Origin: a virus
Lineage: Duplodnaviria > Heunggongvirae > Uroviricota > Caudoviricetes
DNA: 44,062 nucleotides
IMG/VR virus record: IMGVR_UViG_2529292906_000019
Location: 1-44,062 of that record
Direction: 5' to 3' (one strand)
The notes under the pieces are model-generated. The model made no database searches and was not told the origin of the DNA. It was given only the letters and a program-made list of their open reading frames with translations. The position numbers and the translations under genes are program-made. Each line of letters opens with the position of its first letter. Position 1 is the stretch's first letter. Below are positions 25,480 through 26,267 of this stretch, in pieces.

Positions 25480-25510
25480 AATAAAAAGCCCAAGGCGTTC
25501 CTCGGGCTTG
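25480..25510 (-). terminator. late terminator tR'-like
   Basis: Minus strand AAGCCCGAGGAACGCCTTGGGCTT followed by TTTATTT, ~80 nt downstream of the candidate pR'. Confidence 0.5.
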
Positions 25511-25566
25511 AAAACTTATTTACTGCCAGCGCATACAACAATGGCACAATATCAGATTTACACGAA

Positions 25567-25596
25567 ATATATGCTAATTAGTTCATTTCTGCAATA
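25567..25596 (-). promoter_or_regulatory. candidate late promoter pR'
   Basis: Minus strand TTGCAG, 17-nt spacer, TATATT, spanning the Q stop codon. Confidence 0.35.
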
Positions 25597-26267
25597 CCTT
25601 GCTGATAATTTGCTGCCTTTTGTTGTGAACGTGATCGCGAAATATGATGTAGCGACTGGGAATCGAGTCCCTTATACAGGCTGATCATCGCATCGTAATG
25701 TTCCACGTAATTCTGAGACCAGTTTGTTTTGTTAACGCCCACCAGCGTAGCGAGATCACCATAATGATACGGATCCTTCCCGGATAACTCGCCTTTCACA
25801 TCCTGCGCCGCCAACCATATCAACTGCCGTAAACGGTCAATGGTCTTCTTCGCCACCTTTTTTCCGGCCAGATGCTCGCAGAATTTCGACCACGCCCACT
25901 GAGTAATCAACACCTGATTATCCCAGCGCACATTCTCGCTGTAGTTCCATAGCAGCCAGGCCTTCTGGTGTTCTTCGAGCGTCATCAGTGCACGGCGCCA
26001 CGATGAGGTGGAGTATTCCACCGGCTGCACCAGTGGAATATGCGCCCCCTTGGCATGCGACTGTTTGCCCGGTATTGGTGGATTATCCAACGTAATCATT
26101 TTCCCGGTTACCTCATCCATTACGCGAGGCTTCTTCCTCTTAAAGGTGCCAGTATCGAACTGCGCATTCTCCAGCCAGGCCATTAACTGCCCTTTCGTCG
26201 CACCACTTAAATCAGCGGTGGCCACCATCAGCTGCTGGCGCACGTATTCGAGAAATTGAGTATTCAT
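25578..26267 (-). CDS. putative late antiterminator Q
   Basis: 229-aa ORF in the canonical position between the nin region and pR'/tR'/lysis genes; family membership is by position and weak recollection only. Confidence 0.55.
   Translation of the reverse strand: MNTQFLEYVRQQLMVATADLSGATKGQLMAWLENAQFDTGTFKRKKPRVMDEVTGKMITLDNPPIPGKQSHAKGAHIPLVQPVEYSTSSWRRALMTLEEHQKAWLLWNYSENVRWDNQVLITQWAWSKFCEHLAGKKVAKKTIDRLRQLIWLAAQDVKGELSGKDPYHYGDLATLVGVNKTNWSQNYVEHYDAMISLYKGLDSQSLHHISRSRSQQKAANYQQGIAEMN

Follow-up and report, generated by a model that had tools for sequence, protein, structure and literature searches.

A probable late-gene control unit of the phage 82 type between the Q and lysis genes of a lambdoid prophage

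The DNA analysed here, referred to as the window, is a stretch of 44,062 nucleotides from a tailed phage (IMG/VR record IMGVR_UViG_2529292906_000019, positions 1 to 44,062). On its minus strand a Q antiterminator gene is followed by a candidate promoter, a leader region, a series of terminator-like hairpins and the late genes (Table 1). The 229-residue Q protein matches the Pfam family Phage_antiter_Q (PF06323; E 1.8e-94, 316 bits; residues 5-222 align with 2-219 of the 220 profile positions) and PHROG 304, 'anti-termination protein Q-like' (E 5e-97). The Q82 family corresponds to PF06323 (PMC9388147). A structure search found no solved structure related to this protein. Downstream of the terminator the lysis, terminase and structural genes occupy about 25 kb of the same strand; the terminase genes are at 22465-20514, and every large ORF as far as position 277 is on the minus strand.

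Table 1. Features in and around the candidate late-gene control unit, in order of minus-strand transcription.
Feature	Positions	Strand	Basis or remark
Q antiterminator gene, Q82 family, 229 aa	25578..26267	minus	PF06323
-35 hexamer TTGCAG	25594-25589	minus	read from sequence; inside last Q codons
Spacer AAATGAACTAATTAGCA, 17 nt	25588-25572	minus	carries last Q codons and stop TAA
-10 hexamer TATATT	25571-25566	minus	read from sequence
Predicted +1, A	25559	minus	7th base past -10; uncertainty about 3 nt
Predicted sigma-70-dependent pause element TG-A-TATTGT (+6..+14), TGATATTGT	25546..25554	minus	extended -10-like; likeness to 82 pR'
GCC 'discriminator' (+15..+17)	25543..25545	minus	read from sequence
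AT-rich segment ATTGTTGTA (+18..+26)	25534..25542	minus	pause predicted at U+25/A+26 (25535/25534), by analogy
Small leader hairpin UGCCA...UGGCA (+14..+36)	25524..25546	minus	predicted; weak, function not claimed
Single-stranded A/U-rich linker GUAAAUAAGUUUUC (+37..+50)	25510..25523	minus	unpaired in centroid fold; precedes terminator
Predicted tR'-type intrinsic terminator, 10-bp hairpin and U-run	25479..25509	minus	terminator scan and fold
Second G+C-rich hairpin AAACCCCGC-N6-GCGGGGTTT	25438..25462	either	9-bp stem; followed by TTTTT on plus strand, UUUACUUUG on minus
Convergent 96-aa ORF (moron) with AAGGAG ribosome-binding site	25144..25434	plus	inserted between tR' and lysis cassette; 0.5-kb antisense insert
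Third terminator-like hairpin ACCAGTCTATCGCTGGT + TTTTTCATTT	24977..24993	minus	scan
Conserved 80-nt non-coding element	24896..24975	minus	5' side of lysis cassette
Putative holin (PF16931), first late gene reached	24488..24886	minus	then second holin, GH108 endolysin, Rz

The original prediction placed a promoter, TTGCAG and TATATT separated by 17 nt, across the end of the Q gene. The pair (25594-25566) does straddle the stop of the 229-aa ORF, with the TAA at 25580-25578 falling within the spacer. A hexamer pair of this quality is expected by chance. Only 8 of its 12 bases agree with the consensus (3 of 6 in the -35), it is absent from the promoter scan list for the window, and sites of equal or better quality number 102 in the window against 135 ± 11 in shuffled sequences. 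The significance of the promoter derives from its position, conservation and homology rather than from the hexamers. With +1 at A25559, the sole register that gives the bases published for the phage 82 late promoter (TATTGT at +9..+14, GCC at +15-17, G at +24, U at +25), two further markers fall close by. The Rfam isrJ model starts at 25562, 3 nt upstream, and the length of Salmonella IsrJ, 74 nt with its end mapped by primer extension, puts the Gifsy-1 5' end no more than 2-3 nt from the equivalent A.

Counted from A25559, the transcribed region carries TG at +6/+7, TATTGT at +9..+14, GCC at +15-17 and ATTGTTG at +18-24, with G at +24 and U at +25. In 82 pR' the -10-like element at +9..+14 includes an extended -10, pausing requires GCC at +15-17, which in phage 82 sets the pause position, the segment +18-25 is AT-rich with G as the wild-type base at +24, and the pause occurs at U+25 and +26 (PMC5001585). 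This likeness is one of positions and bases quoted in the published text, not of an alignment with phage 82 DNA. The combined promoter and pause motif occurs once in the window and in none of 100 shuffles. The predicted pause element, missed in the original prediction, is the strongest single piece of evidence for a Q-antitermination architecture.

The end of the U-run lies about 85 nt past the -10, which would give a transcript of about 80 nt, and the hairpin and U-run at 25509-25479 bear out the terminator expected about 80 nt downstream of the promoter. Its stem, AAGCCCGAGG-AACG-CCTTGGGCTT at 25509..25486, has 10 pairs, 6 of them G-C, with a loop of 4, and is followed by TTTATTTA in the terminator scan. 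Starting from A25559, the 81-nt RNA has a folding energy of -25.6 kcal/mol (z -3.3), a value equalled by 0 of 200 shuffles. The small hairpin at +14..+36 is no better than in shuffles (z -0.74 for +1..+50), and hairpins similarly placed in other leader types are formed in another register; for these two reasons no function is claimed for it. An automatic search detected a terminator hairpin in the equivalent place in 65 of 73 distinct relatives; the stems differ among them. Compensatory changes are seen at the stem base, e.g., G-C to A-U in 8 sequences. RNAalifold on 62 leaders recovered only the 6 outer terminator pairs, because the inner stems are non-homologous. The predicted terminator is a strong one, and in relatives different but equivalent hairpins take its place. 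Matches of the region to the MicC, Leu-leader and Trp-leader models are far below threshold, and the terminator alone is responsible for them. An A/U-rich linker ahead of a terminator is a layout typical of Hfq-binding small RNAs, and the weak MicC and isrJ matches, both below threshold, are explained by it.

The terminator had been expected to stand before the lysis genes. It is upstream of them but not directly, as the first lysis gene starts at 24886, about 590 nt further on, and a convergent ORF and two more hairpins intervene. The 96-aa product of that ORF belongs to no Pfam, PHROG or NCBIfam family and has no tblastn match in phages, and the segment that holds it is common to none of the related loci. 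The G+C-rich hairpin nearest the terminator reads as the terminator of this plus-strand ORF, and it is possibly a second block to minus-strand transcription. At the place of the third hairpin, relatives always have a different hairpin and T-run. The 80-nt element beyond it is found at about 90% identity in 43 places in related loci, irrespective of the flanking DNA on either side, and has no Rfam match. A long imperfect hairpin was considered for this element; 89.6% of it is paired, but there are no compensatory changes and shuffles do equally well, so that the fold is unsupported. A weak promoter-like match (9/12) was found by the scan at 25062-25034, and an additional promoter for the lysis genes may exist, e.g., at this site.

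Conservation was expressed as mean pairwise identity by column block among 77 distinct relatives. Megablast of the region against phage records gave no match, and relatives came only from a sensitive blastn mode and from E. coli genomes. The best-conserved block of the region is the -10 (0.94). The -35, which occurs as TTGCAA, TTGCAG or TTGCAT, has a value of 0.89, the segment +1..+17 has 0.90-0.92, the pause element +6..+14 has 0.90 and the GCC has 0.92. For the Q codons the values are 0.81-0.86 at first and second positions and 0.56 at third positions, and for the spacer, which occurs in several variants, 0.73. Across the family the leader is least conserved in its middle (+27..+50; 0.46). 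Homology stops just past the U-run (0.68, then 0.29, then 0.16), where the blast alignments end as well. On this comparison the Q82-type unit is a sharply bounded mobile module, with the -35 at one limit and the end of the U-run at the other, in which the pause signal is better conserved than the Q coding sequence.

The motif is also strictly linked to Q genes of this family. Among 93 loci encoding relatives of the window's Q (71-94% identity), the strict pattern TTGCAx-17-TATAtT-6-AAATCTGATAT stands at the Q stop in 91, and a slightly relaxed -10 brings in all 93. A reverse search by the DNA motif alone returned 119 viral contigs, 101 of them with enough upstream DNA to judge. All 101 have a Q82-type ORF upstream of the motif, ending at the promoter in 88 and lying 480-1060 nt upstream in 13. 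Leaders among the relatives are mostly 56-93 nt long (median about 83) and are of at least four unrelated types, 56-nt leaders among them. The leader in the window is of the type called A here, whose middle is near-identical even in loci where identity to the Q protein of the window is only 72-76%.

Phage 82 itself is among the closest known parallels. The locus shares with it the Q family (PF06323), the -10-like pause element at +9..+14, GCC at +15-17, the AT-rich stretch at +18-25 with G at +24 and U at +25, and a terminator shortly downstream that gives a short terminated leader. Phage 82 is a phage of E. coli, whereas the host of the window appears to be Citrobacter-like, the closest genomic relatives being Citrobacter. 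In phage 434 (OL657226), the Q gene is annotated as 'Q82-like', TTGCAA-17-TATACT stands at the Q stop, and a terminator is annotated 50 nt downstream. It differs from the window in a leader of about 56 nt, in GTA replacing GCC at +15-17, and in Q DNA that is about 66% identical. The terminator and the antisense paQ are annotated in the 434 record and pR' is not. That record also has a CII box annotated over the -35, and an antisense paQ dependent on CII was considered for the window as well; the window has CTGC-N6-TTGC, with 1 mismatch, and encodes YdaS/YdaT, not Cro/CII.

A more general likeness is to the pR'/qut/6S RNA/tR' system of lambda and to StxS of Stx phages. These have a constitutive promoter by Q, a sigma-dependent promoter-proximal pause and an intrinsic terminator. 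Their lysogens make a short RNA that ends at the terminator, and read-through follows once Q is loaded. Lambda differs in its unrelated Q family (PF03589), its pause at +16/17 with the -10-like element at +1..+6, and its leader of 194 nt. Nor is the lambda late promoter known to overlap the stop codon of Q. The window does not belong to the lambda type, as its Q matches PF06323 only, its pause element is at +9..+14 and its leader is about 80 nt. The original prediction was correct in that this leader is shorter than lambda's, but with the family median so close to it the length is no peculiarity.

IsrJ has so far been regarded as a stand-alone virulence small RNA. It was observed as a 74-nt RNA on northern blots, with a 5' end determined by primer extension and a promoter of its own that is active on a plasmid (PMC2330248). 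In Gifsy-1, isrJ (RF01393) has the promoter TTGCAA-17-TATATT, the same first 14-17 transcribed bases (AAATCUGAUAU) and the same terminator flanks (AAGCC...GGCUUUU) as the window, and is of similar length (74-75 nt; window, about 80 nt). Upstream of its promoter a remnant of the Q 3' end has persisted (L001 4515-4621 is the homologous unit). The Gifsy-1 unit is set apart from Q by an insert of about 870 bp, an isrK / C4 / antirepressor module. The middle of the RNA is unrelated to that of the window, IsrJ being of a second leader type (B). The Rfam isrJ model matches the window over its full length (25562-25485) with 27.9 bits and E 0.002, whereas Gifsy-1 isrJ itself has 100.3 bits. Since the gathering score of 37 is not reached, the window RNA is a homologue of isrJ at both ends and not a member of the Rfam family. 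Salmonella IsrJ, in turn, appears to be the leader transcript of a Q82-type unit. This link is not stated in the literature examined, where antitermination is mentioned with IsrK instead.

The minus-strand segment 25594-25479 is very probably the phage 82-type unit for late-gene control in a lambdoid prophage. The unit is judged real because of its context, i.e., the Q82 gene, the 82-type pause layout, the conservation, the linkage and the IsrJ homology. We infer promoter activity, pausing, Q binding and Q-dependent read-through in this phage from its sequence, the linkage of the motif to Q82-type genes in 101 of 101 contigs lending indirect support to the last of these. Host sigma-70 RNA polymerase would initiate near A25559. 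In the promoter that it would use, the -35 and the spacer share their DNA with the last Q codons and the stop. Sigma-70 would then bind again to the element at +6..+14, which together with the GCC and the AT-rich stretch would pause the polymerase at about +25/+26. Without Q, transcription would end at the hairpin and U-run, yielding the RNA of about 80 nt. As the Q82-family protein accumulates, it would bind DNA of the promoter region and load onto the paused polymerase, making it resistant to terminators. The resistant polymerase would pass tR' as well as the hairpins at 25462-25438 and 24993-24977 and proceed into the lysis, terminase and structural genes. The Q-antitermination architecture that had been predicted is thus supported at the level of sequence, with a Q82-family Q, a promoter at the Q stop, a pause signal, a terminator and late genes downstream.

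Other explanations can be given for the same DNA. The hairpin at 25509-25479 might merely end the early-right operon, with the hexamers a product of chance and the late genes expressed by read-through of early transcription or from a lysis-proximal promoter. The chance-level hexamer pair and the promoter-like match at 25062-25034, upstream of the lysis genes, are in keeping with this. That match, however, lies in AT-rich DNA, is one of 4 such sites in the scan against 3.2 expected, and has a hairpin and U-run 40 nt after it. Such an explanation also fails to account for a non-coding -10 and +1..+17 that exceed the coding sequence in conservation, for the exact 82-type pause signal and the linkage of the motif to Q82-type genes in 101 of 101 contigs, and for the homologous IsrJ RNA that begins at the equivalent promoter; it is very unlikely. 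Also highly improbable is a start about 20 nt further downstream, in which the pause element would instead be an extended -10 promoter and the RNA would be about 55-60 nt long. TGnTATTGT is indeed extended -10-like, and TTAGCA is found 18 nt upstream of GATATT. In phage 82, however, the element is transcribed, with the pause signal at +9..+14. The length of IsrJ (74 nt) and the presence of UGUAAAUCUGAUAU at the 5' end of the Rfam model place the pause element inside the RNA, and the upstream TATATT is the most conserved block.

A different proposal is that the transcript of about 80 nt acts primarily in trans as an Hfq-type small RNA similar to IsrJ or StxS, and that this role explains its conservation. 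It is compatible with the late-control reading, because one transcript can serve both. The layout fits (a free 5' end, a small hairpin, an A/U-rich linker and a terminator with a U-tail), the isrJ model match is full-length though sub-threshold (27.9 bits, E 0.002), and the type A leader middle stays near-identical despite Q identity of only 72-76%. IsrJ influences Salmonella invasion (PMC2330248), and in Stx phages the RNA made from pR' to tR' functions as a small RNA (PMC7547250). Against this, the best-conserved part, +1..+17, is the one required as DNA for pausing, the leader middle +27..+50, the place expected for a seed, is the least conserved (0.46), and the unrelated leader types, of which there are at least four, include 56-nt leaders too short for a seed. 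As the primary role of the transcript, action in trans is possible but not probable. A wider version of the idea is doubtful and is offered tentatively. In this version the leader would be a prophage regulatory small RNA sharing its origin with IsrJ, IsrJ would be the constitutive pR'-tR' leader of Q82-type prophages, and the leader variants, at least four in number, would form a diversifying pool of small RNAs that act on the host, as StxS has been shown to do in Stx phages.

For the late-gene control unit itself, the late switch of the phage 82 type is already well studied, and the window provides a further example rather than a new system. What is gained is an annotation for the window of where late transcription would start, where it would stop in the lysogen, and which protein would release it. 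This bears on predicting when the lysis genes, the virion genes and any cargo in the slot past the terminator are expressed. In 82 pR' the Q-binding element lies within the promoter region, from -31 to about +1, and the spacer at 25572-25588 probably holds some or all of the putative element in the window. Q82 is the one Q family without a solved structure, and natural variants of the promoter region could therefore help to locate its DNA-binding site.

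By every sequence-level criterion, the unit at the end of the Q gene is a putative late control region of the phage 82 type and not of the lambda type. This kind of region is already known and biochemically characterised; the window adds a member. The Q ORF is a full-length member of PF06323 (Pfam, E 1.8e-94) and also of PHROG 304. PF06323 corresponds to the Q82 family; lambdoid Q antiterminators form three unrelated families, of which this is one (PMC9388147, PMC7171158). No solved structure was found among the relatives of the window Q. Genes for NinG and a DUF1367 protein lie upstream, as in a typical lambdoid nin region. 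Downstream on the same strand are two holin-like genes, a GH108 endolysin, Rz, and the small and large terminase genes, followed by about 20 kb of large ORFs in the same orientation. The Q-antitermination architecture of the original prediction is thus borne out at the level of sequence by a Q82-family gene upstream, a pause signal, a terminator and same-strand late genes downstream.

The promoter hexamers, said to span the end of a Q-like gene on the minus strand, and the strong terminator about 80 nt beyond them are located exactly as predicted (see table). The 81-nt RNA from 25559 to 25479 folds with -25.6 kcal/mol (z -3.3), better than all of 200 shuffled sequences. The hexamers themselves are poor: TTGCAG matches TTGACA at three of six positions and TATATT matches TATAAT at five. 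The pair is absent from the promoter-scan output for the window, where sites of equal or better hexamer quality number 102 versus 135 ± 11 in shuffles. Since this is chance level, the case for a promoter depends on all the other evidence.

Features of the putative late control region and of the interval before the lysis genes
Feature	Position	Strand	Remark
Q ORF, 229 aa	26267-25578	minus	last codons ...att gca gaa atg aac TAA
-35 TTGCAG	25594-25589	minus	sequence reading
17-nt spacer	25588-25572	minus	sequence reading; holds Q stop codon, 25580-25578
-10 TATATT	25571-25566	minus	sequence reading
Terminator hairpin, AAGCCCGAGG-AACG-CCTTGGGCTT, then TTTATTTA	25509-25486	minus	terminator scan
Second, G+C-rich hairpin	25462-25438		first on minus strand after the U-run
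Convergent ORF, 96 aa	25144-25434	plus	strong ribosome-binding site AAGGAG
Third hairpin and U-run	24993-24977	minus	terminator scan
80-nt non-coding element, TTTCAGGCTCACGGGAATCA..GTGCTTTGTTGATAAATCC..CGTGAAGCCTGACCC	24975-24896	minus	just upstream of first lysis gene

A predicted pause signal, absent from the original prediction, follows the promoter. The phage 82 late promoter has a -10-like pause element with an extended -10 at +9 to +14, a GCC 'discriminator' at +15-17 and an AT-rich segment at +18-25; its wild-type +24 is G, which a 1-nt insertion at +18 moves to the pause end, and pausing occurs at U+25 and +26 (PMC5001585). With +1 set at A25559, the seventh base past the -10, the window reads A-A-A-T-C-TG-A-TATTGT-GCC-ATTGTTG-T-A. 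This places TG at +6/+7, TATTGT at +9-14, GCC at +15-17, an AT-rich segment at +18-24, G at +24 and U at +25, so that, given this start, every feature quoted for phage 82 in PMC5001585 is present. The window has a single copy of the combined promoter and pause motif, and 100 shuffles have none.

The motif is also tied to the gene. Scanning with the DNA motif alone gave at least 119 viral contigs, 101 of them with at least 700 nt upstream. Among the matches listed, 88 of the 101 have the promoter at the end of a Q82-type ORF, and such an ORF lies 480-1060 nt upstream of the unit in the other 13 (L097, L098, L118, L132, L146, L148, L152, L162, L169, L175, L176, L184 and L195); the motif was therefore never seen among them without a Q82-type gene. 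From the opposite direction, a Q-protein search found relatives at 71-94% identity in 80 viral contigs and in 11 bacterial genomes, most of them Citrobacter; Gifsy-1 and phage 434 bring the loci to 93. In 91 of these the strict motif stands exactly at the Q stop, and easing the -10 slightly brings in the rest. Nearly every locus has a terminator hairpin after it. Leader length, measured from +1 to the hairpin end +7, is 56-93 nt except in two loci where the finder took a later hairpin. The leader had been noted as shorter than that of lambda; it is short, but with a median of 83 nt among relatives (81 in the window) this is the family norm and no peculiarity.

Mean pairwise identity among 77 distinct relatives is 0.89 for the -35, 0.73 for the spacer, 0.94 for the -10, 0.90 for +1 to +5, 0.90 for TGnTATTGT and 0.92 for GCC. 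It is 0.46 in the leader body (+27 to +50), 0.29 at +83 to +100 and 0.16 beyond; within Q it is 0.56 at third codon positions and 0.81-0.86 at first and second positions. The conserved unit extends from the -35 through the end of the U-run and no further, and blastn alignments end there too (query ~787-792, window ~25484-25479). Between the fixed +1 to +17 and the terminator, related loci L003-L093 carry at least four unrelated leader bodies, including the type of the window, the IsrJ type, a 56-nt phage 434 type and a TACTTTGATATGCTGCC type. Terminator stems vary, with compensatory changes at the stem base, yet still form terminators. Leader type is not linked to Q clade (that of the window also occurs with Q only 72-76% identical), which suggests frequent recombination within the leader. 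Several stems are interchangeable among the loci.

Of the Rfam models, only isrJ matches the whole length of the leader (25562-25485, 27.9 bits, E 0.002). This is below the gathering score of 37, and Gifsy-1 isrJ scores 100 bits; by score the window unit is not an isrJ member. In Gifsy-1 (NC_010392, 3678-4621) the order is antQ (Q82-type), isrK RNA, C4 antisense RNA, antirepressor gene, isrJ. The antirepressor stop codon adjoins the -35 of isrJ. Directly 5' of isrJ is TTGCAAAACTGGATTAAAACGGCTATATT, comprising the -35, a remnant of the final codons of Q (cf. phage 434) and the -10; TTATGTAAATCTGATATCGTCGCC comes after it. The Q82-type promoter/pause/terminator unit of Gifsy-1 is the isrJ gene. 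The inserted isrK/C4/antirepressor module has moved it about 870 bp away from antQ, a gap resembling that in the 13 viral contigs. IsrJ is a 74-nt RNA, with its 5' end mapped by primer extension and its 3' end at the terminator U-run (PMC2330248, PMC4825925 Fig. 1 legend), and has been expressed on a plasmid from its own promoter (PMC2330248). The homologous promoter and terminator therefore function in vivo. In the literature examined no description of IsrJ as a pR' leader was found; Sy et al. give that role to IsrK. The displaced leader is a by-product of modest interest.

For phage 82 and lambda, initiation, pausing, termination, Q loading and read-through form an established chain (PMC4914094, PMC5001585, PMC9388147), which very probably operates here too. 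Initiation at about 25559 would be constitutive, followed by a sigma-70-dependent pause at about +25. Without Q, termination at 25509-25479 would give an RNA of about 80 nt. The Q82-type protein would load on the paused complex via a DNA site within about -31 to +1, and read-through would be processive thereafter. Were the hairpin a mere operon-end terminator and the promoter a chance match, as the hexamer pair taken alone would allow, neither the conservation, the motif-to-Q linkage nor IsrJ would be accounted for. The same three lines also contradict initiation further downstream, at the -10-like element; in particular, the pause element falls inside the mapped IsrJ RNA, which speaks against that start. 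The leader possibly also acts as a small RNA, which is compatible with a late-control role, although what is conserved across the family is the DNA signals rather than the leader body.

The terminator was predicted to precede the lysis genes. It does, but with a gap of about 590 nt between its U-run and the first of them (start 24886). The second hairpin is mainly the terminator of the convergent 96-aa ORF, and an AT-rich stretch lies between the second and third hairpins. For this ORF, neither Pfam, PHROG nor NCBIfam gave a family, tblastn gave no match in phage records, and the related loci have no counterpart; it resembles an orphan cargo gene, transcribed in the direction opposite to the late operon. 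Related loci carry the 80-nt element in 43 places at about 90% identity (e.g., L004 3598-3683, L044 3269-3354). It is kept whichever holin follows and whatever precedes, with a different terminator hairpin always directly before it. Because its distance from +1 varies from 79 nt (L044, where it adjoins tR') to 2226 nt, the space between tR' and the element looks like a cargo slot, holding the convergent ORF in the window. The element can fold as a long imperfect hairpin, with no compensatory change or covariation in support, and has no Rfam match. It is perhaps a processing site, a 5' UTR of the lysis cassette or a recombination linker at a module boundary. Element and slot are likewise by-products of modest interest. 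A second plus-strand ORF (127 aa, 22786-23169) lies between the Rz/Rz1 end of the lysis genes and the gene for the small terminase. No PHROG family covers it, and its only match, NosD-like, is weak and below threshold; possibly it is a further antisense cargo gene within the late operon.

Antisense to Q (25589-25602, plus strand), the sequence at the -35 is CTGC-AATACC-TTGC. In relatives with a TTGCAA -35 the antisense TTGC-N6-TTGC is the lambda CII box, and the phage 434 record (L002 3169-3182) annotates such a box as paQ. The window phage encodes YdaS/YdaT (34980-35189, 34429-34968) instead of Cro/CII, so the relevance of a CII-type box here is doubtful. After a tyrosine integrase gene (42297-43382, plus strand) comes a small-RNA locus of the host, ryeA/sraC and ryeB/sdsR (43456-43600; Rfam 178 and 116 bits), which suggests that the prophage is integrated at or beside ryeA/ryeB.
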